A stretch of 64,000 nt of DNA from Nitrospira japonica (GTDB lineage Bacteria > Nitrospirota > Thermodesulfovibrionia > Thermodesulfovibrionales > SM23-35). The position numbers and the translations under genes are program-made. Position 1 is the first letter of the stretch. The number at the start of each line of letters is the position of its first letter. The stretch spans positions 1 through 64,000 of the forward strand of contig DYFC01000032.1 of NCBI GenBank assembly GCA_020725385.1, given 5' to 3'. Below, in pieces: positions 31,450 through 56,374 of the stretch. Under the pieces are notes generated by a model. The model made no database searches, was not told the DNA's origin, and worked only from the letters and a program-made list of their open reading frames with translations.

Positions 31450-31458
31450 AAATTTTCT

Positions 31459-31956: not shown

Positions 31957-31970
31957 CCTATAATTAAATT

Positions 31971-34655: not shown

Positions 34656-34679
34656 TCTCTCAATTATTTAGGTTAGCAA

Positions 34680-35927: not shown

Positions 35928-36039
35928 TTACTTATTTTAATTGTAGAAATACAGAGTTAATATTTTATCACGTCTAAAAAATTATTTTCAAATATATAGT
36001 AGCTTGCGATTTAGACATTCACTCACTATAATTTTAGTT

Positions 36040-36879: not shown

Positions 36880-39540
36880 ATGAAGATTCATAATCTTTCC
36901 ATAGATGAAGTTTTCAAGAGTCTTGTAACTTCAGAAGATGGTCTTACCGAACAAGAGGCATTAAGTCGTTTTTCTGAATACGGTTCAAATGAGATTAAAG
37001 AAATAAAGAAAAAACCTTTATATATAAAGTTCCTATCCCAATTTACACATTTTCTGGCTATACTTCTTTGGCTTGCTGCTGTATTAAGTTTTTTGTCCGA
37101 ATATCTGCATCCGGGCGAGGGAATGCTTACACTCGGGATTGCGATTGTAGCTGTAATATTTATAAATGCTGTTTTTTCTTTTATACAGGAATATAAAGCT
37201 GAAAAAGCTCTCGAAGCTTTAAAAAAACTTCTGCCTTTTCATGTAAAAGTACTGAGAGACAGCAAAGAAAAAGAGATTTACGCAAGGGAAATTGTTCCCG
37301 GAGACATTATACTTCTTTCCGAAGGAGATAAGATTCCTGCGGATGCAAGATTAATAGAAGCTTCCGAGCTTAAAGTAAATAATGCTTCTCTTACAGGTGA
37401 ATCCGAGCCTGTTTTAAGAAACAACGAGCCATTTGCCGGAGAATTAATAAGAAGCCCGAACATTGTATTTGCCGGCACAACAGTTACAAACGGCTCAGGA
37501 AAGGCAGTAGTTTTTGCAACAGGCATGAGTACAGAATTCGGCCGCATCGCACATTTAACCGGTGCTGTGAGTTCGGGTCTCAGTCCTCTTCAAAAAGAGA
37601 TCATTAGAACGACAAGAATCCTCGCAACAATAGCTGCTTCTGTTGGCATATTCTTCTTCTTGCTCGGATTCGTAATAGGAAGAAGTTTCTGGCATAATTT
37701 TATCTTTGCGATTGGTATAACAGTCGCCCTTATCCCTGAAGGTTTGCTACCAACAATGACTTTGTCACTTGCTATGGCAAGCCAGAGAATGGCAAAAAGA
37801 AAAGCATTAATAAAAACTCTTACATCTGTCGAGACTCTCGGAGCTGTAACAGTTATCTGCACCGATAAAACAGGCACGCTCACACAAAATAAAATGTCAG
37901 CAGTGAAAATCTACTTTAACAATAAACTTGTTGATGTAAATGAATTAAAAGATGGCATGGCCTTTGAACTGCTCAGGGTTTCCTATTTTTGCAATAATGC
38001 CCGTTTTATAGATGGACAGTATAAAGGTGATCCTACAGAAATTGCTCTTTTAAAACTCGCAAAAGAAAGATTAGGAAATTTAAAAGTAAAACGTTTAAAA
38101 GAATTCCCTTTTGATCCTGATAGAAAAAGAATGACAACAGTTAATATGCTTGAAAATGAAATTATAGCTTTTACAAAGGGAGCGATAGAGGGTCTCCTTC
38201 CTTTATGTAGTAATTTCATTATTGATGGCAAAAAAATACCGTTTGATGAAAATTCAAGCAAATTAATAATGGATACTTGCCACAATATGATGGATACGGG
38301 ATTGAGAGTTCTCGCATTTGCATATAAAGATGCTGTAAATATCGAAAACTTTGACATAAATGAAATTGAAAATAACATGACATTCGCAGGATTGATAGGG
38401 CTTGAAGACCCGCCAAGACCAGAAGTAAAAGAAGCAATTAGAAAATGTAATGAAGCAGGAATAAAGATAATAATGATAACAGGTGATAGTAGTAGAACAG
38501 CAGTAGCTATCTCAAAAGAAATTGGTTTGATAAAAGGCGACCCGATAATAATTGAAGGATATGAATTCAATAAAATGTCTGATAAGGAATTAATAGAAAA
38601 ACTTCAGGCTAAAGAAATTATATTTACAAGAATGACACCGAAACACAAATTAAGGGTTGTTTCATTGCTCAAAGAAGAGGGCGAGATAGTTGCTGTAACA
38701 GGCGATGGAGTAAATGATGCTCCTGCTTTGAAAAAAGCTGATATTGGACTGGCAATGGGAATTACAGGCACAGATGTAGCAAAAGAAGCAGCGGATATTA
38801 TTTTGCTTGATGATAATTTTGCAACTATTGTTAATGCTGTTGAAGAAGGAAGGACTGTTTTTGACAATATAAAAAAATTTATAACTTATATATTTGCTTC
38901 AAATATCCCCGAAGCAGTTCCATATCTTGCTTATATATTGCTCAAAATACCTTTGCCTTTGACAATAATCCAGATACTTGCTGTTGATCTCGGAACAGAT
39001 ATGCTCCCTGCTCTTGCATTGGGCGCTGAAAAACCTTCACCTGATGTTATGAAACAGCCGCCGAGAAAGATGAAGAAAAGGCTTCTGGATTTTCCTTTAA
39101 TTCTCAGGTCATACCTTTTTCTTGGCCCAATCGAAGCAGCAGCATGTATGTTTGGTTTTTTCTGGGTTTTAAATCACGGTGGTTGGCTCTGGGGCACAAT
39201 GCTTGGTCCCAATAACACACTTTATCTTCAGGCTACAACAGCATGTTTGACTGCAATAATTATTACCCAGATAGGTAATGTATTTGCCTGCCGCTCTTCA
39301 AGATCGTCTATCTTCCATACAGATTTTTTTTCAAATAAACTTATATTTCTCGGGATTATGGTTGAAATTCTACTTCTTCTATTTATCGTTTACCATCCAT
39401 TCGGGAATAAAATATTCTTAACTGCTCCTATAAGTTTCGAGACATGGCTTGTACCTGTACCATTTAGCATCGCACTGTTAGTTTTGGAGGAATTGAGAAA
39501 ATTTTATGTACGAAGACAAAAACAAGAAAAATATATTTAA
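36880..39540 (+). CDS. Cation-transporting P-type ATPase (type II)
   Basis: TGES, PEGL, DKTGTLT, TGD, GDGVNDAPAL. Confidence 0.95.
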   Translation: MKIHNLSIDEVFKSLVTSEDGLTEQEALSRFSEYGSNEIKEIKKKPLYIKFLSQFTHFLAILLWLAAVLSFLSEYLHPGEGMLTLGIAIVAVIFINAVFSFIQEYKAEKALEALKKLLPFHVKVLRDSKEKEIYAREIVPGDIILLSEGDKIPADARLIEASELKVNNASLTGESEPVLRNNEPFAGELIRSPNIVFAGTTVTNGSGKAVVFATGMSTEFGRIAHLTGAVSSGLSPLQKEIIRTTRILATIAASVGIFFFLLGFVIGRSFWHNFIFAIGITVALIPEGLLPTMTLSLAMASQRMAKRKALIKTLTSVETLGAVTVICTDKTGTLTQNKMSAVKIYFNNKLVDVNELKDGMAFELLRVSYFCNNARFIDGQYKGDPTEIALLKLAKERLGNLKVKRLKEFPFDPDRKRMTTVNMLENEIIAFTKGAIEGLLPLCSNFIIDGKKIPFDENSSKLIMDTCHNMMDTGLRVLAFAYKDAVNIENFDINEIENNMTFAGLIGLEDPPRPEVKEAIRKCNEAGIKIIMITGDSSRTAVAISKEIGLIKGDPIIIEGYEFNKMSDKELIEKLQAKEIIFTRMTPKHKLRVVSLLKEEGEIVAVTGDGVNDAPALKKADIGLAMGITGTDVAKEAADIILLDDNFATIVNAVEEGRTVFDNIKKFITYIFASNIPEAVPYLAYILLKIPLPLTIIQILAVDLGTDMLPALALGAEKPSPDVMKQPPRKMKKRLLDFPLILRSYLFLGPIEAAACMFGFFWVLNHGGWLWGTMLGPNNTLYLQATTACLTAIIITQIGNVFACRSSRSSIFHTDFFSNKLIFLGIMVEILLLLFIVYHPFGNKIFLTAPISFETWLVPVPFSIALLVLEELRKFYVRRQKQEKYI

Positions 39541-39745
39541 GAAAATACAGATGTTGCGAAAAATCCGTTATCCGTATTAAATACGGACAGGTGGAACGGT
39601 TTTTTCGTGCGATGCCTGCATTAACTGGGTTATTAAATGTTTTGACAAAAGAATTTATATTTAAGTATATTTTGTTAGTGTTTCAGATTTGAAGACATTT
39701 ATGATTACAATCAGACCTAATAGAACTTAGGGAGAGACATTCTAA

Positions 39746-39955
39746 ATGAGGAAGATTAAATATAGCAAAGATGTTGACACCCTTCTTATTGAACTTTCAG
39801 ATAGAAAAATAGACTATGCTGAAGAAGAAGGTCAAATAATTATACATTTTTCAAAAGATGGAGAACCGGTTCTTTTGGAGATATTAGATGCAAAAGACTT
39901 TTTACTCAATTCTCTCGCAAGTCTTGTAAAAGAAAAAGAAGTAGCAATACCTTAA
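39746..39955 (+). CDS. DUF2283 family small protein
   Basis: IKYSKDVDTLLIEL...IIHFSKDGEPVLLEILDA. Confidence 0.8.
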   Translation: MRKIKYSKDVDTLLIELSDRKIDYAEEEGQIIIHFSKDGEPVLLEILDAKDFLLNSLASLVKEKEVAIP

Positions 39956-40129
39956 ATAACAAAAAACACAGACAACTATACATATTAACAGTTTACAGTT
40001 TACTTTTAACGCTTTACTTATTTACAGCTTTTCACGTTTTTCTTTTTTATACGTAAGCATTGTTTGTTACCCGTATAAATACGGACACGATGAATACAAT
40101 TATTTATTGCCGAGTTAATAATATATATA

Positions 40130-40493
40130 TTATTTTTGGAGGGTCTTTAAATATTCTAAAATTGCTTCTTTAAATCTATCAAAATCTCCAGGATATTTCT
40201 TTAGGATTGTAACAATTATTTCTGCATCTATCTGCTCATACTGGTGCACTAAAATATTCCTGAATTTTGACATCTTCTTAAGACTTATAAAAAGTTCTTC
40301 TCCGAATTTTATTTTCATATAAAATTTTAAATATATCTGCATAACTCCCAGGTGCTCTCATGTTTCCACATGAAATAATGTGCTTCGCAATATCAGCACA
40401 TGTCTCTATCATTATCTGCAAAGTCATCTCAATTATACGCTGTTTCTTCCAGTCTTCTTTATACTCTCTAACTGTTATCTCAGAATACTCCTG
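40130..40493 (-). pseudogene. HepT/DUF86 (HEPN) toxin, N-truncated and frameshifted
   Basis: QEYSEITVREY..RIIEMTLQIMIETCADIA..SYADIFKILYENKI, then a frameshift into GEELF..FRNILVHQY (RX4H). Confidence 0.8.
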
Positions 40494-40666
40494 TCCGTGT
40501 TCTGTAAATAAATAGCAATATCTACATCTGATAAATTTGTTTGACTACCGGATGCCATGCTTCCAAAAAGATATGCAAAAATAATATTATCCTCAGCTTC
40601 AATAACTTTTTTTACCTCATTAATAATCATCAGTCTATTTGATAATATAGGCCTAAATTTAATCAT
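40475..40666 (-). pseudogene. MNT nucleotidyltransferase antitoxin, C-truncated
   Basis: FAYLFGSMASG..SDVDIAIY, then an abrupt end into the HEPN remnant. Confidence 0.8.
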
Positions 40667-41247
40667 GTTTAACTATTGCGTAGTAAATAAAAGTTGTCAA
40701 CTTTGAATTTTTCTTTATCGTTTTTATCTTGCCATTTATCAAAAGTATATAGCTGACACCTTTATTTTTATTTACCCGAAAGATGCAATTGGAGATGCTG
40801 AACCAACCCTGAAACAAGTTCATGGCATGGTTTATGATGACAATTTTCGACCCTTTACGCATAAGCAATTTCACACTAACGGCACCAGGGTTAGGAAACC
40901 TAATCAGGGGTTTTTACAAGTGCTTGAATATACCACTTAAAAGCTTTTTAATCAAGTATTCCTGTTGGTTTCATAGTTGTATATAGTTTGATTTGTTTTG
41001 ATGTTTTTTGATATATTCATTTCACGATTTTTTCATGTGAAAAATTTAACAATCTAAGGTGTGCCTGCTGCGCCCGCCCGCCACTCCGCAGGCACGAGTT
41101 TTTCCATAGCCCCCGTCGCTCAGGCACTATGCTTGCGTTATCCCGCAAAAGCTGCGCCAGTCACTAAACTTGCTTTTTGACTGCAAGCAAGCCCGTGCCT
41201 TCGCTCCACCACCCTATAATAATATTGTGTTTAGTTCGGGTGATATG

Positions 41248-41532
41248 TCAGTTCCATGTTACATCTTGTTCATCATAAGCATCTTCCATTGCTTCAAGTA
41301 CTAACCGAAAAAATTCTGGATTTTCTCCAAGAAAATTAACAAGAAGTTCCGCTAAAACATAGGGTTCTTCCATCGAAAATAACCATATGTCTTTTTCAAA
41401 ATCACCGTTCATTAAAACGATAAAATTCTTTGCCTTCCCATTTTGTTCACCTCTTAATTTGCCCAGAACCTTTCCTGTAGAAAATAGTTCAAAGTTGATG
41501 TTATAAAGCTTTTTCTCTTTGTTCTTTATCAT
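41248..41532 (-). CDS. Orphan 94-aa protein downstream of the SAM-I/IV riboswitch
   Basis: Strong GGAGGT RBS; no family recognised. Confidence 0.7.
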   Translation of the reverse strand: MIKNKEKKLYNINFELFSTGKVLGKLRGEQNGKAKNFIVLMNGDFEKDIWLFSMEEPYVLAELLVNFLGENPEFFRLVLEAMEDAYDEQDVTWN

Positions 41533-41673
41533 TTTTTACCTCCGATTTTTGTTTTCTTGAGTGGATTAAGGCTCTGCCTGATATTGTTTTATGGTGGTAG
41601 CTTGGATATAAGAGAAAATTGCGGTTTCATCGATGCAAGCACCTCCTTTTCGAGATGATTACATCAGGGCAAT

Positions 41674-41699
41674 AAAAAAACCGCCACATCAGGGCGGTT
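41674..41699 (-). terminator. Intrinsic terminator of the riboswitch expression platform
   Basis: AACCGCC-CTGATGT-GGCGGTT followed by a T-run. Confidence 0.85.
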
Positions 41700-41705
41700 A
41701 GTTCA

Positions 41706-41818
41706 TTTGGAGATCTTTTTTTCGGAAAACTCAGTCCGCACATCGAGTGGTTTCCCACTCAGGCACCGTAGCATCTCCACGCTCGGTTGCCGAATCCTCC
41801 TCGGATTGCTCCTGATGT
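41706..41818 (-). ncRNA. SAM-I/IV-type riboswitch aptamer
   Basis: P1 ACAUC/GAUGU, AGGAG junction, P2 AAUCC/GGAUU, CGGCAACC...GGUGCC P3, P4 GAGUGG-GAAA-CCACUC, P5 CGGA/UCCG, 3' tail AUCUCCA complementary to UGGAGAU at the tip of P3. Confidence 0.85.
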
Positions 41819-42090
41819 TATGTTATTTTAACATATTTCCATTCAGAAAAGCTTCAATATTTTTTTTGATTTTATCTTCTCTTTTGCCTTAATATATGCT
41901 TCGTTAGGTCTAATGGATTTGTAATGATAAGTAAATCTTTTAGAGAATCTTGTTTGAAATCTTAACTATGAAATTTTAAGTGCCCAAACCAATTGAAATG
42001 ATTTTTACTTTAAGACTTCCTCTTGTTAATTCGACAAATGTAAAGATTTATGATTGTTCTCTAAAAAGTTGTTGAATAAATAGACACACT

Positions 42091-42313
42091 GTCATTCCCC
42101 GATTTACCTGCCCACTGTTTTTGTGGCGGGATCGGGGAATCCAGTTTTAGCCTTATTACCGGTTACTGCGCCATGTCTTTTTAAAGTTTCAAGCATGCCC
42201 TCTGGTTTTACTGGAGGGTTGTGGTATGACAGAAACTTTGGATTCTCCGGTCAAGTAAGCCCACTGGCTTGCTTGACCGCCATTTGTTTGGCGGAACCGA
42301 AGGGCCAGAGAAT
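42091..42313. repeat. REP-like composite element (GTCATTCCCCGAT..ATCGGGGAATCC plus the half shared with 19573-19649)
   Basis: Palindromic halves with nested small palindromes; right end lacks the terminal GAC seen at 19647-19649. Confidence 0.75.
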
Positions 42314-42368
42314 TTCATTTTTAATCTCTCACTTTCACGTTCGTCTTTCACTCTGCCAAAGGCAGCCC

Positions 42369-43354
42369 GTCGCAGTCCTTTATTCATCAAGGCTTATTTT
42401 CTCTCTGACGAATTACTTAACGGTGAATTAAAAAAACGGATTGAAAGTCGCAGTCCTTTATTCATCAAGGCAGGCTGGCATGGCCAGAGTGAACGTTAAA
42501 AGTTGAAAGTGATAAAAATTATTTTTTCAATGAATCAATCATTTTACTAAGCATTGCTCGTATCTCCTGACAGGTTAATTCTCTCATTTCAAATATGTTG
42601 CTATCAATAAAATTTAATCGCTTTATCTTCTCATACCAGTCAATTGTCTCATTGGTTGAGCCCCTCGCAATATATAAATAATGTTCAAATTCTCTGCCTT
42701 TACGCCTTCCATATCCTTCAGCTATATTCGCTGTTATTGATGAGACACTTCTTAATACTTGATTCGCAATAATTCTGGCAACCTCTGTCTTTGGAAAAGT
42801 TTCAATGTCTTTTAAAACATCTTCAAATAATTTCATCCCTGCTTGCCATACCTTTAGCTCTCTAAAGTCTTTCATTTTTTAATCACTCACTTTCACTTTC
42901 GTCTTTCACTCTGCCAAAGGCAGCCCGTCGCAGTCCTTTATTCATCAAGGCTTATTTTCTCTCCCTACATACAGTTATCCAGTATTTCCAAAAGGGAATG
43001 CTAAGAAAGTCGCAGTCCTTTATTCATCAAGGCTTATTTTCTCTCATGTACTTGCAGAACTTACTGCTAATCCTACTCTTAGTCGCAGTCCTTTATTCAT
43101 CAAGGCTTATTTTCTCTCATTAAAAGTATAAATTTCTGCGGTCTGTTTTTGTTTTGTTATAAGTCGCAGTCCTTTATTCATCAAGGCTTATTTTCTCTCG
43201 TTTCAAAATTGTACGTGACTTTCATTGTTAATAACTCTGGGTCGCAGTCCTTTATTCATCAAGGCTTATTTTCTCTCGCATTCTGACGATCGATTCGTCT
43301 TTGCTCGTCGCAAGAAAGTCGCAGTCCTTTATTCATCAAGGCTTATTTTCTCTC
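42369..43354 (-). CRISPR. CRISPR array, repeat GAGAGAAAATAAGCCTTGATGAATAAAGGACTGCGAC (37 nt): 7 full repeats, 1 partial, 6 normal spacers and one 455-nt gene-containing insert
   Basis: Identical repeats start (+ coordinates) at 42369, 42927, 43009, 43082, 43163, 43241, 43318; 25-nt partial at 42447-42471; spacers 41, 45, 36, 44, 41, 40 nt. Orientation inferred from the leader next to cas2 and the ..GAC 3' end. Confidence 0.97.
42519..42875 (-). CDS. Four-helix-bundle protein (23S rRNA IVS / Avd-like family) inside the CRISPR array
   Basis: FRELKVWQ..Q..RSVSSITANIAEGYGR..F..YL.IARGS..E family pattern; 118 aa, intact. Confidence 0.92.
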   Translation of the reverse strand: MKDFRELKVWQAGMKLFEDVLKDIETFPKTEVARIIANQVLRSVSSITANIAEGYGRRKGREFEHYLYIARGSTNETIDWYEKIKRLNFIDSNIFEMRELTCQEIRAMLSKMIDSLKK

Positions 43355-43552
43355 CGCACCTCCATATTATTCAATAAAATCATGAAGTTAAAATGCTTAT
43401 TTCTGTAACATTGAGTTATCAACAACTTAATCATACATGAAAAGTTGGTTTTTCTATTTTCAAAGAACAAAAATATATTAATTTTCAATCTGTTAGCTTA
43501 TTTTCTGTAACCTTCTATATTTTTTATTATCCACAAAACTTCGTATAACTAC
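43355..43552 (-). promoter_or_regulatory. CRISPR leader with IHF-like sites and a direct repeat
   Basis: AT-rich; TATCAACAACTTA (43417-43429) fits WATCAANNNNTTR; GCTTATTT(T)CTGTAAC at 43395 and 43496. Confidence 0.75.
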
Positions 43553-43825
43553 TTATAATATAAAGACATTTTTGTCTTTTGAGATTTCTCCTTTGCCAAA
43601 AACCTTTGCAACGCCCTCACACTTTGCACATAGTGCATATATTCTCACGCTGTCTTCGTCAGATACTATTCTTTCCAGCTTATTTATCATCTTCTGAAGT
43701 AGTTTATTGTCAAGAATACATTCGAATACACTATATTGTACTCTTGTGCCAAAGTCAAGCATAACTTTAGCAATTTTATCACGTTTCTTATCATCAGGAA
43801 TGTCATATGAAACAATATAAAACAT
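43553..43825 (-). CDS. cas2: CRISPR-associated endonuclease Cas2
   Basis: YIVSYDIPDDKKR, GTRVQYSVFEC, DSVRIY. Confidence 0.97.
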   Translation of the reverse strand: MFYIVSYDIPDDKKRDKIAKVMLDFGTRVQYSVFECILDNKLLQKMINKLERIVSDEDSVRIYALCAKCEGVAKVFGKGEISKDKNVFIL

Positions 43826-43889
43826 TCTAACCTCAATCAGATAATAACCCTCTCTTATACCAAGAGGGAGAATTTATTTGACATTATTC

Positions 43890-44888
43890 TCATACCTGTA
43901 ACAAAAAAGGTGTATATGCTGAACCACCCTTAATATAATTTGCCAGCTTCTCTGCCTGAATCCTGAAACATTTTCTAAATGTTGTGTTTTCGCTTGTTTC
44001 GGGATGTTTGAATTCATTGGCAAAAAACCTTTCATATTCTTCAAAGTATCTTTTCATTGACTCTCTCTTAAGGTACATGCCTTCAGCTTTGGGATTAACA
44101 TAAAAATCATCTTTTTTAAATATGCCATAGTTAATAAGATATAAAGTAAATCTATCAATAACAGCCCTGAATTCTTCCTGTAAATCAGAGGCAAGTGAAG
44201 CTCTTCCATATTCGGCACTATGAAAATATCCAAGATACGGGTCGAAACCGAGGCCATCAAGTAATGACATAATTTCATTGAATACCAGCGTATAACCGAA
44301 GGATAAGAGTGCATTGACAGGATCGGTTGACGGGTGTTTTTTTCTTCCATTAAAAGTGAATTCCTTTAAAATCATTTTGCCAAAGGCTGTAAAATAAACC
44401 TTAGCAATTATACCCTCGATACCCATTAGAGAATTAATATCAATGCCTGTCACAATGCTGTCAAAGAACTTCTTCATCTCATTTGTTTCTCCTGAAAAGT
44501 CAATCTGTGGATGATTATAGGAAAAAGACCTGATAACGTTGAGACAATTTGTGATTTTTACTCTAAGAATAATTTTTGATAAATTCAATCTGAATTCTAT
44601 ATCCCAGTATTTTTTAAATTGTTCTATTCTTAATTCGATATTTTTTGTTGATGGAGACGTTATTTGACCGATGAGTCTCCCTGTTCTCGATAGAATGGCC
44701 ATTTCAATGCCATGTTCAAAAAGTTCATGAATTGCCTGAGTTGTAAACTGAACGTTGCCGAATATCATGACAGACTCAATCTTGTTGCAAGGAACATCAA
44801 GGAGCACATCGTTTTCCTTACGAACTATGAGTCTGTCCCCTGTTTTACAAAGAATTGCGCCCTGTTCGGTTATGTAAAGATTTGCCAT
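43890..44888 (-). CDS. cas1: CRISPR-associated endonuclease Cas1
   Basis: LYITEQGA, LMGIEG, DPVNALLSFGY, DPYLGYFH, LASDLQEEFR. Confidence 0.97.
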   Translation of the reverse strand: MANLYITEQGAILCKTGDRLIVRKENDVLLDVPCNKIESVMIFGNVQFTTQAIHELFEHGIEMAILSRTGRLIGQITSPSTKNIELRIEQFKKYWDIEFRLNLSKIILRVKITNCLNVIRSFSYNHPQIDFSGETNEMKKFFDSIVTGIDINSLMGIEGIIAKVYFTAFGKMILKEFTFNGRKKHPSTDPVNALLSFGYTLVFNEIMSLLDGLGFDPYLGYFHSAEYGRASLASDLQEEFRAVIDRFTLYLINYGIFKKDDFYVNPKAEGMYLKRESMKRYFEEYERFFANEFKHPETSENTTFRKCFRIQAEKLANYIKGGSAYTPFLLQV

Positions 44889-45821
44889 CTACCAGCCTCT
44901 TTTTTTCTTAAGATAATATGCTTCCATATTCAAAGGCGGCGGGTAGTATAGAACCTTCCGCTCTCTTTTCGGTCTGTCAAACGGTACCATAATTAAGCTT
45001 TTTACAAAAGTAACGCCAAGATATTTGAAGCCTTGCTCAAAGCTAACAATATCGGATTCATCAAGTTTTAATAAAAGCCTGTCAAGAATTTCATTAGTAA
45101 ATTCAAGGGATTGTTTTGCTTTTTCAGGACTTTTGCATAGAACCAGAAAATCATCTGCATATCTCACATATCTTTGATTATTTTTTAGCATTGCTTCATC
45201 CAACTCATCAAGAAAAAGATTAGCAAGGACAGGAGACAAAGGCGATCCCTGAGGTATCCCTTTATCTATTATTTCTAAATTTTTTCCATCCCATACTTCG
45301 GATTTAACCCATAATTTTATAAGCATTTCAATGTGTTCATTATTAATATATTTGTGCACTTTTTGAAAAAGGAGTTCATGATTAACACTATCAAAAAAAG
45401 CATCAATATCAGCATCAATCACCCATTTATATCCTTCCTCATAATATTCCTTAATTTTGTAAACAGCATTTCTGACAGAACGCCCTTTTCTAAAAGCAAA
45501 ACTGCATTCCTCAAATTCTTTTTCGAGTAAAGGTTCAATAATATGCAAAACCAGAGTTTGTGCAACTCTATCGCGAACAGCAGGAACCGAAAGAGCTCTT
45601 GCTTCGCCATTACCCTTGTCCACAAGAATTTTAAGAAGCGGAAGAGGGAAATAGGTTTTTTGTCTCAATTCGTTCTCAAGCATTGCAAGATTTTTTGGCA
45701 GGTCATTCTCAAACTCTCCAATTGTTACCCCATCCACACCCGCACAACCATGGTTTTCCTTAACCTGAAAGAAGGCGGTGGAGAGAGAGTTATAATCCCA
45801 CTTTGTCAATTTCTGTAGCAT
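44889..45821 (-). CDS. CRISPR-associated reverse transcriptase (group II intron-like, stand-alone)
   Basis: AGVDG, R.LSVPAVRDRVAQ, DADIDAFFD, GIPQGSPLSPVLAN, RYADD, FKYLG; abuts cas1; no maturase X domain. Confidence 0.95.
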   Translation of the reverse strand: MLQKLTKWDYNSLSTAFFQVKENHGCAGVDGVTIGEFENDLPKNLAMLENELRQKTYFPLPLLKILVDKGNGEARALSVPAVRDRVAQTLVLHIIEPLLEKEFEECSFAFRKGRSVRNAVYKIKEYYEEGYKWVIDADIDAFFDSVNHELLFQKVHKYINNEHIEMLIKLWVKSEVWDGKNLEIIDKGIPQGSPLSPVLANLFLDELDEAMLKNNQRYVRYADDFLVLCKSPEKAKQSLEFTNEILDRLLLKLDESDIVSFEQGFKYLGVTFVKSLIMVPFDRPKRERKVLYYPPPLNMEAYYLKKKRGW

Positions 45822-46569
45822 TTATCCACAGTCTCTCAAAATTATTTTTAAAAGCATCAAAAGGGCTCGTAAACCGCTCATTCTTTCCTATTACAAGAAC
45901 CGGTGAATCACTCCCGCGTTTTCCTTTTTCGAGAATTCCAATATAAGCTTTTCTATCATCAATTAAATACATCCACCATGGAATAAATTCACTATAAAGC
46001 TTTATATTTATCCGCCCTTCCTTATAAGGAATTGTGTTTTTTAGTATAGATATTGCTCCTCTGATTCTTTTACTTGTTGCCTCTACTGCTTCATCAATAA
46101 CTTTTTTTGCATCAGCAGAAAGACTTTCCAGCTTAACATTAAGGTCATGCCCTTTTTGATAGGCTTCCTGTCTTTTTAAGGATTCGGAATCAGGATTCAT
46201 GAGAAGTATTCTATAACTTGCAATGGGATTTTTTTCAATCCATCTTCTGAAGTGTTCTAAAATTGAATCAGAGCTAATTCCAAGATAGCAAAATGAATTT
46301 CTTGCTTCCTGCCAGACTTTCGGGTTTTCATTGAGGTCAAAGCTGTAATAATACCCTGCATTTGCTGAAAGTAAAAGCTTTATCATTCTCTCATACTTTT
46401 TCCAGATCCAGAAGGAAAACAAAACTGTCAGGATGATACAAAATGAAAATATTCCGAGCCAAAGTTTTCCTGAAAAAATACCGACCAAAGCTCCTCCTGC
46501 TATACCAGAAATGAAGTTGATGAATAGGTCGCGGAAAAAGAGTTTCGGGCTAAGAAAATGCTCTGACAT
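45790..46569 (-). CDS. Two-TM accessory protein with a DUF5919-like (PLD-like fold, tentative) soluble domain
   Basis: Two N-terminal hydrophobic helices; YRILLMNPDS, IKLY...W.MYLIDD, SPVLVI..F..F...FERLW; no HxK motif seen. Confidence 0.6.
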   Translation of the reverse strand: MSEHFLSPKLFFRDLFINFISGIAGGALVGIFSGKLWLGIFSFCIILTVLFSFWIWKKYERMIKLLLSANAGYYYSFDLNENPKVWQEARNSFCYLGISSDSILEHFRRWIEKNPIASYRILLMNPDSESLKRQEAYQKGHDLNVKLESLSADAKKVIDEAVEATSKRIRGAISILKNTIPYKEGRINIKLYSEFIPWWMYLIDDRKAYIGILEKGKRGSDSPVLVIGKNERFTSPFDAFKNNFERLWINATEIDKVGL

Positions 46570-46571
46570 TT

Positions 46572-47510
46572 TTACTCCTTTACCAATATTCCATAATGCC
46601 CGATAGTTAGAGTATTATCTTCAGTCTCCTCTAAAATTGACCCAGGCATCCAGCAGATAATAGCATCACTGATTTTTTGTCCGGAACCGATCTTCTTATT
46701 CCCTTTACTATCCTGTATTTCACCCCATTCTCGTCCAACCAGAGGTTCGATGTCACCTTTTAGATTCAAACTGCTATTAATAGGTAAATGAGCTGGTATT
46801 GGTTTGTTTTTTGTAATTTTGATTTTCTTTTCTCCCGAAACAATCTCATGCTCAAAAAAGTTATTATCAATGACTTCTCCTGTTTTTTCATTATCCAGAA
46901 TAAGTCGCCCCCAACCATATTTCCTGTCTCCACCGACAAATATCTCAGAAAATATTTCTTTAAGTCTTATGTCTTTGCTACCATTCCATCCTACAGATTT
47001 TGTATTTACTGTTGCACTTTCTTCTATAAATATATACCCGACAAAGTAAACAGGCATTTGATTTTTTGTATCTTCGTCCTCGATTATAGGCGCAATAAAT
47101 TCTGATTCGTGCAATGATTCATCTTCGGCAGTATTGCTTTCGGGCAGAACAGCGGTTTGGCCATAAGATTTGATAAAAAGACGTTCAAATTCAGAGGCAG
47201 AATAATCTCCATAGTATAGTCCTTTACCGGTATATTCAGGCATTAATAGCTTAAGCTCATCATTTTGAAAAAGCGCAGGGTAAAAGTAGCTAATAAAAAT
47301 ACTTTTGTTTAATAATTCTTCTCCATATATTTTATAATTTGTTGTGTCTTTTATAGACCCATCTGCTCTTGCCAGATTATCTGTAAAAGACGCCCACATA
47401 TTCTTACCTGTAATGTAGTAACGTGTGAGTTTTATATACCCGAGCGTATGCCAGCCAATATGTACATGGCTTTTTGCCTGATAAACCAGTCTATAAGCTT
47501 TCCAGCCCAT
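46572..47510 (-). CDS. cmr3: Type III-C RAMP, Cmr3-like (Cas5 group)
   Basis: HIGW N-terminal RAMP motif, VGGDRKYGWG glycine loop; position after cmr5. Confidence 0.75.
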   Translation of the reverse strand: MGWKAYRLVYQAKSHVHIGWHTLGYIKLTRYYITGKNMWASFTDNLARADGSIKDTTNYKIYGEELLNKSIFISYFYPALFQNDELKLLMPEYTGKGLYYGDYSASEFERLFIKSYGQTAVLPESNTAEDESLHESEFIAPIIEDEDTKNQMPVYFVGYIFIEESATVNTKSVGWNGSKDIRLKEIFSEIFVGGDRKYGWGRLILDNEKTGEVIDNNFFEHEIVSGEKKIKITKNKPIPAHLPINSSLNLKGDIEPLVGREWGEIQDSKGNKKIGSGQKISDAIICWMPGSILEETEDNTLTIGHYGILVKE

Positions 47511-47890
47511 TAGTCACTACTCCCTTCTGCAACGGGTTCCTGAGCTTGTTCTACTTTAGCCTTAGCCTTTGCATGATAGCGGGCATAAACAAGCGTACGC
47601 TCAAGGAGTTCTTTGGCGAAGAGAAGATGATCGAGATTATCCTTTAATTTATTTCTTATTGCCTGAAGCGGTTCAACTTCGTCTTGAAGAATGTTTTTCA
47701 TAATCACTTCTTCTTTTAGAAAATTAAACGATTCTTCTTGAATTTTTACTGCCTTCGATGCACACCATAAGAAAAAAGCATATACGCCGTCTTCCTGAAG
47801 AACGCCAAGAGATTTTCGAATTATATCTTCACTTGCAGATTGTCCAATCTTATATCCAAACTCAGCACATTTCAAATCAAGTATTTCCAT
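47510..47890 (-). CDS. cmr5: Small subunit Cmr5 (Cas11)
   Basis: KSLGVLQEDGVYAFFLW, LLFAKELLERTLVYARYHAKA. Confidence 0.85.
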   Translation of the reverse strand: MEILDLKCAEFGYKIGQSASEDIIRKSLGVLQEDGVYAFFLWCASKAVKIQEESFNFLKEEVIMKNILQDEVEPLQAIRNKLKDNLDHLLFAKELLERTLVYARYHAKAKAKVEQAQEPVAEGSSD

Positions 47891-47893
47891 ATC

Positions 47894-49030
47894 TTATCCT
47901 CCTATGTTGAGGACTTTTAGCCGTCCCATTCCTCTTGTACCCATTCCTCCGATGCCCAGTGACTCAAAATAGTTAAGCCCCTTTTCTACATTAAATGCAA
48001 TAAAACCAATTTGTTCATTATCATCAACTGCTGGATTTTTTAAGGGGTTTTGATAACTTGCCGGTTTTTCTAAATTGATTGGCTTGCTACCTTCTATTCT
48101 GAAATACCCCGGGTTGTTGTAAACAACGTCAAACCACATCACGGTCGCTCTTGGAATTGCTTCATATGTATAGAGAGCTCTATCTTCAGCAGCACCAGTG
48201 GCAGGGTCAATGGCAACAGATGTACGAACTTCAAGGTTATCGTTGACAATGCGTGAGAAGAGTTTGTCAGAGACAAGCAGAAGACGACTTTTTATTTCAG
48301 CCGGAACATCGTCAAATACAGCTGGCAAGCTTAAATCAGCCCCGTCATCCTTTTCTAACATCAGCCATCCAAAGTTGAGCTTGTTCTGGACGCCAAGGCC
48401 AAAGCTTTTGAATTTGTCATCCGATGATATTGACACCGATAACCCATGCTCACTTAACACGCGGGGGGATGTTACCCACACCGGCCCGATCATTGAATGA
48501 ACAGGGAAAAATAGAATTCTTGCATCGTAGAATTGTGCAAGCCCCTGAAAACTTGAGCCGCTTTTACCCTTTGAAAATCCAAAAGGAATACATACCTCGC
48601 AATCAGGTCTTCCGCAATGCCCTTCTCCATCATCAGCACCTTTGCCCGCACAGCTGTAATATTTTGGTTCAAGGGGATTATCATTATCATAAAATGGTTT
48701 ATTGTTTGATACATCAAAAGTTATTATGGCTTTGTCACCTTCAATTTTTGATACTTTATAAAGAGGCCTCTGGTATTTCCATTTAAGATATTTTTTATAA
48801 TCAATCTTGAAATCTGCTTCTATTGCAGTTTGATTTTCACTCTGTACTGCCATTGCGGTATATGCCCTTGCAACCCCGGCAATGCTTGAGCCGGGTATTT
48901 TGGGAAGATTTGTTCCTGGCTCTCTGGTGATTGTATTATCTACTCTCCCGAGCCTGTATCCGCCTGTGCCGATATGCACAGGGTCAAGAGTTAAAGCAAA
49001 ATAAGTCTTCTTTTCGAAAGGTTTACTCAT
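47894..49030 (-). CDS. cmr4: RAMP Cmr4 (Cas7 group); start probably 49030
   Basis: DPVHIGTG, LPKIPGSSIAG, LFFPVHS, LYTYEAIP, GIGGMGTRGMG. Confidence 0.92.
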   Translation of the reverse strand: MSKPFEKKTYFALTLDPVHIGTGGYRLGRVDNTITREPGTNLPKIPGSSIAGVARAYTAMAVQSENQTAIEADFKIDYKKYLKWKYQRPLYKVSKIEGDKAIITFDVSNNKPFYDNDNPLEPKYYSCAGKGADDGEGHCGRPDCEVCIPFGFSKGKSGSSFQGLAQFYDARILFFPVHSMIGPVWVTSPRVLSEHGLSVSISSDDKFKSFGLGVQNKLNFGWLMLEKDDGADLSLPAVFDDVPAEIKSRLLLVSDKLFSRIVNDNLEVRTSVAIDPATGAAEDRALYTYEAIPRATVMWFDVVYNNPGYFRIEGSKPINLEKPASYQNPLKNPAVDDNEQIGFIAFNVEKGLNYFESLGIGGMGTRGMGRLKVLNIGG

Positions 49031-49031
49031 A

Positions 49032-52000
49032 CTACACACCTCCTTTATTTTGTTCATCTATTCTTTCCTTCAATATGCCAGGATAAAGCTCAAGCGTATC
49101 AAAAAATAAACCATTATCAATGGTTTCAAGAAGCAAACTCTGCTGCTTATCATCAACTTTAAATTCTTTTTGAATTGAAGCAGTTATGAGACTTATCCAT
49201 ATCTGATAACTATCCGAGGTTTTATCTTCTAAACTTACTCCCCATTCCTTATACTTTGTTAACCAGAGGGACTGCAAATCTCTAAGTTTGGTATCTGTTA
49301 TCCCCTCAAGCTGTTTTCCTTTTAAAAGTTCATCCCAAATGTACATTATCTTTTGGCTCAATTCATCAAGTAAAAATGGCTTTGATTTGAAATCACCCAC
49401 ATTGGATTTGCGTCTGTTATCTTTATTAAGGTGTATATCATGCCTTCTCGTATTACAGTCAAGAAATTCAAAATCATAGTAATTGGGGTAAACCCTTACT
49501 TTGTAGCCACTTTTAAGATCGGAAATATGAACAAGGTCACCCATAAAACTTTTTACAAAAGAAGCTTCTTCTTTATGTGTATCTCCTTCACTGCTTTTTT
49601 TGACCATATATGGATGAAAATAGTCTTCCTTACACATGCCCAAATTGTAATTTATATCCCATGATATATTTTGCTTGTCGAAGGTTATTTTTGTTTTACA
49701 ATCTTCGTTCTTGACGTCCTTAATAGTCCATGTATTTTTGCTTTTTTCCTTCCAGTAATCTTTATTCAAATTCTCAAAGTTCTTAAGCATTCTTTTACCA
49801 GAGTCGAGTATGACAAACATGGGAACTTTTTTATGAAAGAAGATATTTCCTATATTAAAAGAAAGCCTTCCTATGACCTTTCCGAAATATTCTTTATACT
49901 GGGAATATATATAATCTGAGATAGGTATGGCTTTATCAGCTGGAACTATAGCCATCATAATGTCAGGTGTTGTTGTAATAACTCTGAGCGGATAAATTTC
50001 TTTATCATCTATTAACACTTCCCTGATAGTTGTTTCCTGTATTTCATTTTTCTCTTTTTCAAATTCCGATGCCTTGATTCTTATTAGCTTTCCTTCCCAT
50101 TCCTGCCTTTTAACCTCAAAATCTGTTTCTTTATATCCTTCATTCACCACAAAAATGTTATCTCCAGCCCTGTAAATATCTATTTTTATCCCATTTATTT
50201 CAGCTTCATAAATAGCATTTTCCAACTGCAATTGACCAGAATTTTTAAGCTTTAGTTTTAATCTCCTGAAAGGTGCAATGAGTTTTTTATTTTCAAGTGT
50301 CCTCAAATCAAACAGATTCTCAAGGAACTTCCTTGTGGTATTCCAAACATTCAGCAAACGAGATGGAGTATGATTTTTTGTAAGCAAAAAATTGCATAGG
50401 TTAGGTTTATTTCCAAATCTTTTTTCTATTTCAAGCTTCTTATCAATGTTCTTTATCCAATCTTTTATTTTCTGCCAGTTTTCAGGCAGTTGCAGTTCTT
50501 TTCTATGTTTGTCGAATAAATATGATATAGCCTTTAAAAAGTCTTTTTCCTTATTGGTTATAGGTGATTTTCCATCTATTGCTTTATTGATCCTATCAAT
50601 CCACTCACTTATTTTTTCATAATTTATTACAATATCTTTACCTTCATTTTTTTCAATTATGTCCTTACGATTTTTATCATTTTCTTTAAAATCATTAATT
50701 TTTTCGAGATGTTGAATTGCTTCTTTAATGCTTTTTGCTTCTTTTACAAAAAGACTCCACAACATATCGCCACTCAACCATGGTTCAAGTGAAAATTTTG
50801 CAACAATAAGAGCCAGTTTGCCATTTTTATCAGCTATCTCATCACTAAAGATGCTATGGCAGTCGTTTCTTTGCTTTTGTTCCCAAATTCTTCTTTCCTT
50901 ACAGATATTACAGACACTATACTGTGTTGATATAGAAGGTCTCTTGCGGCATACACTGCAAATGGTCTTCTCTTTGACATTATCCCATTGTCTCATCCAT
51001 GATAGTTTATGATTTAACCTTTGATAGGGATATTTGCTTTTTTCTGATATTCTCTTGATAGTATGAACAATCTCCATAACAAAATTTGTCTCTTGCATAT
51101 CTGAAATATCAGTAAATACAGGCTGAATTTCTCCGCCTGTAATTTCATCCGCAGCATCATCAACCACTGTTTTTATTTCTGATAAAAGTTTTATATATTC
51201 AGATGCGGATTCTCTTATTGCCGGGGCTATGAAATATATACCATTATCATCGTCGTAAATATTTGCACATATAGGATATTGATATTCGCAGATTTGTTTT
51301 ATTTTCTCCTTTAAGAGCTTGATTGTTCTTTTTTTAGCAACAATATCGCCGATCTTTTGCCCATCCGATATAAAGGCCATGCCATCCCAGCCAAAACCAA
51401 TAAGGGAGAATTTGGCCCTGTCAAGACTTTGTATCTTTTCGCCGTAAATTAGAAAATGATTAAAAAAGACCTTTGAGAGCGCTGCTGTAACATAGGAATG
51501 CTGCCATAATGTTATATCATTTGCAGGCCTGTTTGTATCAGTCAGTGCAAAATTAAAAGCTTCTTCAACAGCCTTAAATATTTCTATCCTTTCCTTATAA
51601 TGAAAGCTATCAAGATATTTAGGAAGCATATAGTTCAATTTGTTGTATAAAATTTTTCTGATATTATCAAAATCTTCTACGTTCAAAAGGGTCTCATAGC
51701 CAAATACTGTTGAGCCAAATGTCTGCTCTGTAGTTTGCTCCATTACCATAAGAGGATTGTTCCGGTCATCCCTTGTATCAACTGCATCTCCAAGTTTTAA
51801 AAACTGCGCTATTTCATCTTTCGGTTTTGTATGTTGGTACATCAGGTTTTTTAATGAAATTACCGTATTTATCTGAAAACCGCTTCTATATATATTTGTG
51901 CTCCCGGCATAAGAACTGATTTTCTTATTAAGGCATTCGTTGAGGGGTCTCAAATATTCATTGCTTAATAAATTGTCTTTGTCAAAGAAATTATCCTCAT

Positions 52001-52148
52001 GAGGGTCATTCATCCCTGTTTTCTTCTGCCACCTTCTCCGATAATATATGAATTCGGATGAAAGCTTTCCTGTATCGTGCAATAAACCTGCTAACTCCAA
52101 AATGAAAATCAGTCTTTTGTTTTTTTCAATATTTTCTATCAATGACAT
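49032..52148 (-). CDS. cas10: Cas10 of type III-C (Csx11-like): HD domain present, cyclase GGDD absent
   Basis: LAGLLHDTGK, DTNRPANDITLWQH, CSVC/CNIC Zn finger, PSRL..VW.TT..F, MAIVPADKA; no GGDD in 1038 aa. Confidence 0.88.
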   Translation of the reverse strand: MSLIENIEKNKRLIFILELAGLLHDTGKLSSEFIYYRRRWQKKTGMNDPHEDNFFDKDNLLSNEYLRPLNECLNKKISSYAGSTNIYRSGFQINTVISLKNLMYQHTKPKDEIAQFLKLGDAVDTRDDRNNPLMVMEQTTEQTFGSTVFGYETLLNVEDFDNIRKILYNKLNYMLPKYLDSFHYKERIEIFKAVEEAFNFALTDTNRPANDITLWQHSYVTAALSKVFFNHFLIYGEKIQSLDRAKFSLIGFGWDGMAFISDGQKIGDIVAKKRTIKLLKEKIKQICEYQYPICANIYDDDNGIYFIAPAIRESASEYIKLLSEIKTVVDDAADEITGGEIQPVFTDISDMQETNFVMEIVHTIKRISEKSKYPYQRLNHKLSWMRQWDNVKEKTICSVCRKRPSISTQYSVCNICKERRIWEQKQRNDCHSIFSDEIADKNGKLALIVAKFSLEPWLSGDMLWSLFVKEAKSIKEAIQHLEKINDFKENDKNRKDIIEKNEGKDIVINYEKISEWIDRINKAIDGKSPITNKEKDFLKAISYLFDKHRKELQLPENWQKIKDWIKNIDKKLEIEKRFGNKPNLCNFLLTKNHTPSRLLNVWNTTRKFLENLFDLRTLENKKLIAPFRRLKLKLKNSGQLQLENAIYEAEINGIKIDIYRAGDNIFVVNEGYKETDFEVKRQEWEGKLIRIKASEFEKEKNEIQETTIREVLIDDKEIYPLRVITTTPDIMMAIVPADKAIPISDYIYSQYKEYFGKVIGRLSFNIGNIFFHKKVPMFVILDSGKRMLKNFENLNKDYWKEKSKNTWTIKDVKNEDCKTKITFDKQNISWDINYNLGMCKEDYFHPYMVKKSSEGDTHKEEASFVKSFMGDLVHISDLKSGYKVRVYPNYYDFEFLDCNTRRHDIHLNKDNRRKSNVGDFKSKPFLLDELSQKIMYIWDELLKGKQLEGITDTKLRDLQSLWLTKYKEWGVSLEDKTSDSYQIWISLITASIQKEFKVDDKQQSLLLETIDNGLFFDTLELYPGILKERIDEQNKGGV

Positions 52149-52161
52149 AACATTACCCCTA

Positions 52162-53331
52162 CTAATCGTCTTTGTTCACAAGGCTAACCGCATTTGCAAT
52201 TATCTTTTCAAGCCCGTCAAAATCATTATAATTCTTTTCTGTTAGAGGAATGCCTGACATATCAAATAATCCCTCTGAAAATGAATCAAAAATTATTCCA
52301 AACCCGCTGCTTTTCTTGGCAGAAAAGCCATAGGTAAGCATCATATCTTTCAAAGAGTTATAAACAATATCTAAATCTTCAATAACATCTTTTCTGAGCT
52401 TATCAGGCTTTCCTATCAGGTCAAACGGGACATAAAGAATGCTGAAAGTGCCTGTTGCATTTTCAGGCACACATTCGATATAAATGGGCAGAGTTCCTGC
52501 CTTTGTCTTTCTGTCATGCGGATTGATAACTTCAAGACCAATCTGATTGAAAAATGTGGGATGAAAATTAAGTCTGCCCCGCCGTCCTTCGACCTTTGGA
52601 TCTATATATCCTTTATCTTTAAGCAGCTTCTGAAAATTTTCTGATATATATTTTCTTTTCTCTTTAAAAAGCTCAACATTCTGCTTTTCATCTTCAGTAC
52701 AAAATGCTTCGGCTAATATGGTATCAAGATAATTTTCTATTGAGTCTTTTTCATAACCGAAGAGACGAACCATCTGTGCCCTGCAATAGAGAAAATCTTT
52801 AATCTCTTCTTGAGTTAGTGTTTCTGGCAAGCTGTCTGCAAAAAGTTTCATCGCTACCCATCGCATATTTCCTTTCCACGAACTTCCCGATACCATTGGA
52901 ACCTTGAATACTTTATCTTTCCTGACAGGATTGTCAATGATATAAAACTCCTCATCGTCTCTGGAAATATATGGCTTTGAAAGAGTAAAGGTGAATTGGA
53001 GGAAAAAGGAAAATCTGGGTAGTTTATAAATATTCTCTATAAAATAAGGTCTATAAAGGTTTAAGTTTTTCAGTTTTGTTATTTCATCATTTATTAAATT
53101 ATTATATTTCCCTCTGTGGATTATGAATTTATGACCTTTTGGATCTCTAATGTTATCCCCATTTTTTGCATAGTTTCTGATGTTGTTGTTTTTATTAAGG
53201 CAGGTTGCCAATAATTTTACCCGAGAATATATATTTATAATTTCCCCAAATTTATCATTTCCATTAACGCATTTATCTATATCAGATTTATCATGAATGA
53301 CATCATATTCTAAAAACCAATCAAAGCTCAT
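52162..53331 (-). CDS. cmr6: Type III-C RAMP, Cmr6-like
   Basis: FTLSKPYISRDD, PMVSGSSWKG, EVINPHDR, GFSAKKSSGFG. Confidence 0.8.
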   Translation of the reverse strand: MSFDWFLEYDVIHDKSDIDKCVNGNDKFGEIINIYSRVKLLATCLNKNNNIRNYAKNGDNIRDPKGHKFIIHRGKYNNLINDEITKLKNLNLYRPYFIENIYKLPRFSFFLQFTFTLSKPYISRDDEEFYIIDNPVRKDKVFKVPMVSGSSWKGNMRWVAMKLFADSLPETLTQEEIKDFLYCRAQMVRLFGYEKDSIENYLDTILAEAFCTEDEKQNVELFKEKRKYISENFQKLLKDKGYIDPKVEGRRGRLNFHPTFFNQIGLEVINPHDRKTKAGTLPIYIECVPENATGTFSILYVPFDLIGKPDKLRKDVIEDLDIVYNSLKDMMLTYGFSAKKSSGFGIIFDSFSEGLFDMSGIPLTEKNYNDFDGLEKIIANAVSLVNKDD

Positions 53332-54445: not shown

Positions 54446-54522
54446 TTGTCCTCCTTCCCAATATCGTGCAGTAATGCAGCCAGAACAACTGTGTTATATT
54501 CCCTCTGATCAAACCCATTCAT
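54442..54522 (-). pseudogene. 26-codon remnant of a Cas10/Csm1-type HD N-terminus
   Basis: MNGFDQREYNTVVLAALLHDIGKEDK*; own RBS; TGA overlaps the cmr1 ATG. Confidence 0.7.
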
Positions 54523-54543
54523 AAGCTTCTCCCTATAAAAACA

Positions 54544-56288: not shown

Positions 56289-56374
56289 CTATTTATAATT
56301 CCCCCGCTAAAAACAATAGCGGTTAAATAATATCATAAATAGGCTTATGAAATCATCAAATATCTTGTTTAATC

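Follow-up and report, generated by a model that had tools for sequence, protein, structure and literature searches.

The sequence analysed here, referred to below as the window, was a 64,000-nucleotide (nt) stretch of Nitrospira japonica DNA (assembly GCA_020725385.1, contig DYFC01000032.1, positions 1 to 64,000 of the forward strand). Its minus strand carries a riboswitch of the S-adenosylmethionine (SAM) I/IV class, Rfam family RF01725, followed by an intrinsic terminator, a 13-codon open reading frame (ORF) and an ORF of 94 amino acids (aa), all within an island that also holds a type III system of clustered regularly interspaced short palindromic repeats (CRISPR). SAM riboswitches are the textbook means of feedback control over methionine (Met) and SAM genes; the window riboswitch does not lie in the 5' leader of any such gene. 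The components of the leader and of the sequence beyond it are given here in the order in which they would be transcribed.

41825..41833, minus strand: putative extended -10 promoter element (TG-n-TAAAAT), 6 nt upstream of P1, predicted from the letters
41707..41823, minus strand: SAM-I/IV aptamer (RF01725), 52.4 bits, covariation at 10/27 pairs, pseudoknot with 6/6 Watson-Crick pairs and one compensatory change
41811..41818, minus strand: P1 5' strand and putative switching sequence ACAUCAGG, able to pair with GAUGU at 41744-41740 (giving P1) or with either copy of CCUGAUGU
41809-41792, minus strand: P2, a plain hairpin without internal loop
41791-41785 and 41769-41762, minus strand: core blocks GGCAACC and ACGGUGCC, by reading of the sequence
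41779-41773 and 41714-41708, minus strand: 7-nt pseudoknot, UGGAGAU with AUCUCCA, by reading of the sequence
41745..41760, minus strand: extra internal hairpin capped by a GNRA (GAAA) loop, after P3 and ahead of the P1 3' strand, an insertion relative to the Rfam model
41739-41723, minus strand: 3' hairpin outside P1, by reading of the sequence
41699-41679, minus strand: stem of the intrinsic terminator (7 bp, 7-nt loop), with a T-run to 41674; holds the first copy of CCUGAUGU (41693-41686)
41661..41668, minus strand: second copy of CCUGAUGU, past the T-run, at the position of the anti-P1 element, also directed against the ribosome-binding site (RBS), that is CUCCUGAUGC in metK leaders
41589..41646, minus strand: putative relic metK translation start, comprising GGAGG (41646-41642), TGCAUCGAUG and the 13-codon ORF (41630-41589), collinear with the Acidobacteriota metK start
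41248..41532, minus strand: 94-aa ORF of no recognised family, with a GGAGG Shine-Dalgarno sequence 6 nt before its ATG

A scan of the whole window with Rfam, repeated on the small region, placed the aptamer at 41823-41707 (minus strand), where all 99/99 positions of the model were matched at 52.4 bits, above the RF01725 gathering score of 41.1 bits; this was the only riboswitch detected in the window. P1 was formed by ACAUC (41818-41814) paired to GAUGU (41744-41740), and the P1-P2-P3 junction was present together with a core like that of SAM-I (CAACC ... GGUG). The SAM-I/IV family is defined by a pseudoknot that joins the P3 loop to the 3' tail, and all six pairs of the hexamer counted in the window were Watson-Crick (6/6); the sixth was U-A in the window and in the copy from genome G012 described below, and C-G in 9 of 15 other leaders, that of genome G246 among them. 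A sequence-only reading of this locus had listed a full set of SAM-I/IV elements and proposed a search with the Rfam model; every listed element was located on the minus strand, and the search returned the above-threshold match just given. P2 lacked the internal loop of SAM-I and SAM-IV, as Weinberg et al. 2010 (PMC2864571) describe for SAM-I/IV. Compared with the family as described there, the window aptamer was alike in its core, its plain P2, the 3' hairpin outside P1 and the pseudoknot from P3 loop to 3' tail, but differed in having the extra GNRA hairpin listed above, and in having no adjoining Met/SAM gene. A sraL match in the riboswitch region (30.5 bits, below the cut-off of 39) was given no weight, and no other Rfam family matched the two GC-rich flanking elements.

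Compensatory changes were observed at 10 of 27 aptamer pairs across 16 related leaders. The pairs concerned lay in P2, in P4, in the internal hairpin and in the pseudoknot; variation within the two core blocks was precluded because the search pattern fixed them. The extra internal hairpin was found in all 16 leaders (16/16), with covariation. The leader (243 nt) had a fold z-score of -4.33, and 0/200 shuffled sequences folded equally well. The z-score and the compensatory changes together show more riboswitch structure than expected by chance; on this comparative evidence the riboswitch is judged to be real and structurally intact, and it would be expected to bind SAM. An aptamer variant with changed ligand specificity would also account for the association with a non-Met gene, and rare SAM-aptamer variants that sense spermidine, marked by an odd context, are described in PMC10853860. 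The gene context in the window is indeed unusual, but the invariant columns of the 16-leader alignment, including those of the junction and core, were identical to the metK-linked leaders, the sole difference in a conserved stretch being the first base of P1. A change of ligand is extremely improbable.

Beyond the aptamer, the predicted expression platform consists of the terminator and two complements of the P1 5' strand. The terminator was kept in G012, and was present with other letters in G246 and in several Acidobacteriota leaders. A complement of 8-10 nt to the P1 5' strand lay 31-49 nt past the aptamer in 15/16 related leaders, and a second copy of it lay in the terminator in 5/16. For nascent RNA ending at the terminator loop, the minimum-energy structure was the antiterminator (-52.0 kcal/mol; imposing P1 gave -43.1). 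Once the whole terminator was included, P1 plus terminator (-54.2 kcal/mol) and the antiterminator (-52.8) were nearly equal, so that ligand binding could tip the balance. When the read-through RNA was folded, its lowest-energy structure paired the second copy of CCUGAUGU with the P1 5' strand. Upstream, the TAAAAT box stood at the same place in G012; a simple sigma-70 scan did not call it as a promoter, there being no -35 element at 16-18 nt, and in the minus-strand interval separating the terminator from the 94-aa ORF it found no sigma-70-like site.

These features suggest how the leader would operate. With SAM bound, P1 and the pseudoknot would form, the terminator would fold and transcription would end at about 41674, giving an RNA of ~150 nt. 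When SAM is low, the P1 5' strand ACAUCAGG would pair with CCUGAUGU in the terminator to make the antiterminator, and polymerase starting from the putative TAAAAT promoter would read through the vestigial metK start, with its 13-codon ORF, and reach the 94-aa gene; this accessory gene, equipped with a ribosome-binding site of its own, would then be expressed at low SAM. The sequence-only reading had noted a terminator and an antiterminator made by the P1 5' strand, and had predicted expression when SAM is low. The 7-bp stem and T-run (41699-41674) bear out the first of these, and the last is the standard logic, in agreement with the fold energies. The complement in the terminator was confirmed at 41693-41686, to which must now be added the second copy at 41668-41661, which that reading had not included.

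The origin of the leader was sought through its relatives. A pattern scan of species-representative genomes with the two core blocks produced at least 119 stretches, of which 17, mostly from Acidobacteriota, were flagged as riboswitch-like by script. Among the matches listed, which are a biased sample, 12/17 had metK (recognized by its GHPDK signature) downstream, one of them frameshifted and two being near-identical records; another 4/17 had other genes (L018, L067, L021 and L077, the last being the G012 copy), and 1/17 ended at the contig end. From these scan matches a metK-type leader subtype was defined in this analysis by its order of parts, i.e., terminator, P1 5' complement and TGCAUC-n-AUG start, and the window showed this same order when set against the 15 other leaders. 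The 16-leader alignment was collinear from the aptamer through the terminator, the P1 5' complement and the Shine-Dalgarno sequence to the start codon, and the ATG of the 13-codon ORF fell at the metK start position, inside a 12-nt block common to the window and L079. Collinearity and the placing of this ATG argue for a metK-type leader that lost metK; by its alignment, the window leader is judged to derive from a metK leader. Compared with the Acidobacteriota metK leaders L079, L043 and L049, the order of parts was the same, from an aptamer with internal hairpin to the TGCAUC-n-AUG start, but the window had the 13-codon ORF instead of metK, an anti-P1 element of 8 rather than 10 nt, AU-rich stems and an aptamer identity of 57-67%. 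In metK leaders the 10-nt CUCCUGAUGC was complementary both to the P1 5' strand and to the region from Shine-Dalgarno sequence to AUG, and these alternative pairings may, in our reading, form a second, translational layer of control.

The host genome (2.46 Mb, 96.6% complete) contained a single RF01725 match and no match anywhere to RF00162 (SAM-I). Its own metK was found in a metK-ahcY operon on contig C37, and this 3.1-kb locus had no Rfam riboswitch match. Neither tblastn nor a profile of the MetK N-terminus detected a MetK remnant downstream of the window leader (best E 0.75 among nine frames), and with the window, G012 and G246 taken together none was significant (best E 0.16 for the nine frames). 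In G246, a 'SIVDAYL' stretch of MetK-like appearance was rejected as a remnant, its profile E being only 0.16-0.47.

In its distribution the element was sparse. RF01725 was found in 2/61 genomes of relatives and in 3/151 genomes of the phylum, two of the latter representing a different SAM-I-like subtype in one genus; DNA search recovered the element in 2/57 genomes of the family and 3/317 of the order, none of which had metK at the element. Over 151 nt (window 41667-41817), beginning at P1 and ending shortly beyond the terminator, the copy in G012 (L002/L077) showed 92.7% identity to the window, and no other sequence within 8 kb aligned; in the same two genomes metK DNA was 75% identical and signal recognition particle (SRP) RNA 92%. 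After the G012 copy came ~230 nt, then a Cys-rich ORF of 130 aa and a cytochrome c biogenesis cluster (ResB/CcsA). The copy in G246 (L144) was 75% identical and had a full metK-type platform, with a 10-nt anti-P1 element and an RBS helix; behind it came a 27-codon ORF, ~330 nt, an ORF of 62 aa and a TPR protein, and on its upstream side lay an rve transposase. Like the window, both copies were metK-type leaders without metK, and their downstream genes were unrelated. A strain-level metagenome contig (L003) was identical over the riboswitch and 13-codon ORF, the handful of differences in the flanks being too few for a test. Given the SRP RNA-like identity to G012 with the TAAAAT box kept, the unalignable flanks and the absence of riboswitch differences in L003, the element appears to be maintained, and conservation of this degree across two genera speaks against its being merely a relic.

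Loss of metK could nonetheless be the whole history. A foreign, riboswitch-controlled metK may have arrived horizontally and been lost as redundant, leaving a leader without a selected role and the 94-aa gene as a chance neighbour. A relic metK start running into a 13-codon ORF is consistent with this, as are a resident metK-ahcY operon that needs no riboswitch, three order copies with different downstream genes, an insertion sequence (IS) transposase adjacent to the copy in G246, and the repeats on both sides of the cassette in the window. Yet a relic should decay, and the window aptamer (52.4 bits) outscored the metK-linked relatives scanned in the same way (42.0-49.7 bits); all pairings were kept, with AU-rich compensatory changes that fit a host of 36% G+C; the element was conserved between two genera to the degree of SRP RNA amid flanks that could not be aligned; and neither the window, G012 nor G246 retained a MetK-coding remnant. 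The pure relic is a serious alternative, albeit a doubtful one.

The shape of the conserved segment raised another explanation, in which the segment running from promoter to terminator would itself constitute the gene and a SAM-dependent small RNA of ~150 nt would act in trans, by base-pairing or by SAM binding, the downstream genes being irrelevant. Conservation between window and G012 ran from the -10 box to ~15 nt after the T-run, which corresponds to the terminated transcript, and the downstream genes differed in all three copies. Riboswitch-derived small RNAs have precedents: SreA and SreB of Listeria are reportedly of this kind, and still stand before Met genes. In PMC9373788, the SAM-II metZ riboswitch of S. 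meliloti (RZ) is a predicted small RNA produced by termination; it has in common with the window a SAM riboswitch and a terminator able to give a discrete small RNA, but remains before a Met gene. With only three copies, no statistics can be applied to this proposal, which is thought quite unlikely.

The 94-aa ORF had no Pfam, NCBIfam or PHROGs match (0 PHROGs families), its sequence profile matched PDB only at E 1 or worse, and Pfam matches at E up to 5 had nothing in common with those of its homologues. An exhaustive HMMER search of 1.84 billion representatives yielded three credible homologues, at 56% (P0002), 37% (P0003) and 34% (P0004) identity; two of these were also 94 aa long and the third, from a 1,389-nt contig, was 76 aa. 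Three homologues, two of equal length, argue that the ORF is a real gene, and its protein family is very rare. No loci of the homologues were found in the genome or viral contig collections, the sole metagenome locus coming from a conspecific strain. An AlphaFold2 prediction from the alignment of all four sequences had a mean predicted local distance difference test (pLDDT) score of 42.3, and the nearest clusters in a protein atlas (0.84-0.85, unnamed, two with viral members) fell below the level that counts. Long repeat proteins (P0005-P0007) were rejected as kin, only residues ~43-92 being matched in what was judged a compositional similarity, and a PADLOC match to PbeD was likewise set aside as weak and partial (E 2e-4, 32 residues) and absent from the homologues. 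The sequence-only reading had placed only the 13-codon ORF and an unrecognised 94-aa ORF downstream, and had proposed that the riboswitch controls an orphan gene rather than Met metabolism, or was stranded by loss of its metabolic gene. Both ORFs were located and no family was found for the larger; metK-ahcY lies on another contig. Stranding was borne out as regards the origin of the element, through its collinearity with metK leaders including ribosome-binding site and start codon.

On balance, the somewhat favoured interpretation is that an intact SAM-I/IV leader of metK type, detached from metK and residing in a horizontally variable CRISPR island, makes the 94-aa accessory gene respond to low SAM, and that such control may be selectively maintained. 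Several observations weigh against this. The spread was patchy, at 2/57 family and 3/317 order genomes, so the 92.7% identity could reflect transfer instead of selection. The genes downstream of the three orphans (the 94-aa ORF in the window, the 130-aa Cys-rich ORF in G012, the 62-aa ORF in G246) were unrelated and none began at the regulated start; across the three order copies the conserved item is the riboswitch, not a partner gene, and the want of a conserved partner argues against a specific regulon. The sample behind the count of 12/17 metK leaders was biased, in that the pattern fixes two core blocks and the count is among the matches listed. In the window, the part of the metK platform that would act on translation has decayed: the anti-P1 element has 8 rather than 10 nt, and only ~6 pairs with the RBS region are left. 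As to expression, a metatranscriptome run containing 0.04 of the sampled words gave two short contig pieces on 40000-44000, from the CRISPR array and the cas2 region, and none on the riboswitch.

Related riboswitches were also found beside mobile or other non-Met genes. In a Terriglobales-order sample (151 genomes of the order to which G441, the genome of L018, belongs), there were 22 RF01725 matches in 19 genomes, with 14 genomes over the cut-off. The first downstream gene was non-Met, integrases included, for 13/22 matches. It was Beta_elim_lyase in six cases (L148, L150, L154, L156, L157, L158), metK in one (L162) and metH in two (L164, and L159 with a four-helix-bundle gene, L159:1719-2051, inserted between). 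Phage_integrase came first in two (L160, L165), a 73-aa, excisionase-like HTH_17 gene in one (L163) and a family of 72-78 aa in three (L146, L151, L155); in the other seven the first gene had no family (L145, which is L018, L147, L149, L152, L153, L161, L166). The frameshifted integrase of L160 begins at the regulated AUG, and the anti-P1 element and RBS helix there, as we read them, are unlike the metK type yet still complementary. In L165 an HTH_17-integrase begins 50 nt after the aptamer, past what is read as a GC-rich hairpin with a T-run. Among Nitrospirota, G152 (L125/L172, G152:C84:47231-48620) had a riboswitch and terminator, a 289-aa integrase, a second aptamer copy and a 637-aa ORF; the second copy shared the core blocks and, by eye, about half of the aligned positions. 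The integrase leaders of L160, L165 and L125 had matching expression platforms. The notion of the riboswitch as an attachment site found no support at the L160 and L165 loci, which had neither metK nor a repeat of the riboswitch within 20-40 kb. Four pattern matches occurred in viral contigs, none with the P1/junction motif.

In a tree of aptamers, which was weak owing to the short alignment, the window and G012 grouped with L079, G246, L018 and L067. This group comprised the leaders with an 8-nt copy of the switching-sequence complement in the terminator, and only L079 among them had metK. L018 (L018:1869-2369, G441) preceded a member of a ~102-aa family (122 matches, none functionally named), then a DUF6745 protein and an IS4/5 transposase; the L018 gene has been extended N-terminally so as to begin at the metK-type start. 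Downstream of L067 was a 371-aa protein without a family. The 94-aa protein was not detectably related to the L018 or L067 proteins or to the 72-78-aa family (hhalign probabilities <=0.4%). Members of the latter had no Pfam match and were 63-69% identical to each other (L146:1612-1830, L151:1215-1436, L155:1877-2113); a SIR2 gene lay two genes further in L146, and a resolvase fragment adjoined in L151.

The three orphan order copies, the L160 and L165 integrases, the G152 integrase framed by two aptamers, L163 and the 72-78-aa family suggest a broader proposal, namely that SAM-I/IV leaders derived from metK recur, under selection, as a module of mobile and defence islands, whose integrative elements and cargo would take the host SAM level as a cue, be it lowered by starvation, methylation stress or phage SAM lyases. 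In the window, such a module would make the 94-aa gene, and perhaps a stable riboswitch RNA, responsive to SAM depletion; this proposal is regarded as unlikely. By analogy, same-family riboswitches directly before integrase and HTH_17 genes lend indirect support to the suggestion in the sequence-only reading of a defence or mobile-element gene that may be triggered by SAM depletion. Overall, the data fit a recurring and undescribed association of SAM riboswitches with mobile DNA, the class being known and the context unusual. Literature searches found no paper tying SAM riboswitches to integrases, attachment sites or type III CRISPR, the supplement of PMC2864571 being covered for the family name only. 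A well-kept copy without a metabolic gene, in a CRISPR island and with kin before integrases, poses the question of whether mobile or accessory DNA reads the SAM level. If so, the signals sensed by integrative elements and island genes would gain a testable handle, and several small protein families without assigned function a ligand-defined one; if the window copy is only a relic, it would be a clear case of riboswitch leaders outliving their genes and a warning against regulons inferred from adjacency.

The island around the riboswitch was delimited by comparison with a congener (G005), and contained two repeat elements, one on each side of the cassette.

39540..56375, no strand: variable island of 16.8 kb holding the riboswitch, absent from the syntenic site of G005
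41050..41245, no strand: GC-rich repeat that adjoins the downstream end of the 94-aa ORF, with a second copy, 93% identical, on contig C55
42075..42330, no strand: cluster of dispersed hairpin repeats, like repetitive extragenic palindromic (REP) elements, between the CRISPR end and the riboswitch; 37 genome matches including itself

Synteny with G005 extended to a P-type ATPase (window ~39526) and resumed from SufBD (window 56373), these two genes being ~110 nt apart in G005; no direct repeats were found at the island borders in the window. The island contained DUF2283, a broken MntA/HepT pair, the GC-rich repeat, the 94-aa ORF, the riboswitch and the dispersed hairpin repeats; then two CRISPR arrays split by a four-helix-bundle gene, cas2, cas1, a separate reverse transcriptase and a DUF5919-like membrane protein; and then Cmr3, Cmr5, Cmr4, Cas10, Cmr6, Cmr1, a second four-helix-bundle gene and Cas6. 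The cassette had earlier been placed ~550 nt past the CRISPR trailer on the same strand; the distance was correct (552 nt to the nearest repeat, at 42370), and the strand held for the cas genes.

This setting bears on the possibility that a phage SAM lyase, by depleting SAM, switches on a defence or abortive-infection protein that acts with the adjacent type III CRISPR, possibly through SAM-AMP, to which the sequence-only reading had alluded. Type III CRISPR-Cas and toxin-antitoxin remnants do share the island, and SAM-AMP signalling occurs in some type III systems according to PMC10600005 and PMC12255297. However, Cas10 best matched type III-C models and had no GGDD, GGD or GDD motif, which makes nucleotide signalling unlikely, and no match to CorA or to a SAM-AMP lyase family occurred among the scanned island genes; the combination that marks SAM-AMP type III systems (active GGDD Cas10, CorA-type effector, SAM-AMP-degrading enzyme) was not found among the island genes scanned, and the allusion to SAM-AMP is not supported. 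In addition, the 94-aa protein offered only the one partial PADLOC match discussed above, and the G012 riboswitch had no CRISPR or defence genes within 10 kb. A defence trigger of this kind is very improbable.

The GC-rich element was ~190 nt long with 54% G+C in a genome of 36% G+C, and its one other copy (G000:C55:18751-18936, L139) lay between an rve transposase and dndE plus DndD-like genes; a 34-nt insertion was common to the C55 copy and the strain variant L003, and was lacking in the window. The hairpin modules at 42075-42330 were 60-75 nt each and look like REP elements or elements of the miniature inverted-repeat transposable (MITE) type. Two four-helix-bundle genes of the '23S rRNA intervening sequence protein' kind appeared as insertions, one splitting the CRISPR array (42519-42875) and the other inside the type III-C operon (54707-55183). 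The first lay between two copies, 98% identical, of an 88-nt sequence made up of a CRISPR repeat and 52 nt of flank (42318-42405 and 42876-42963); the duplication around this gene divided the array into parts of two and six repeats, the repeat at 42448 being degenerate. The MntA/HepT pair (40130-40666) was broken, with the nucleotidyltransferase cut to 63 aa and HepT split into 49 aa and 70 aa in different frames. The reverse transcriptase (310 aa, 44889-45821) was a separate gene just upstream of cas1 (43890-44888) in the type III-C locus, and the DUF5919-like protein (45790-46569), with two predicted membrane helices, lay between it and Cmr3. Outside the island, a second stretch absent in G005 was observed at 31450-36000 (~4.5 kb in the window, ~730 nt in G005), an SRP RNA and a tRNA adjoined on the minus strand at 5197-5405, and a further tRNA was located at 62040-62123.

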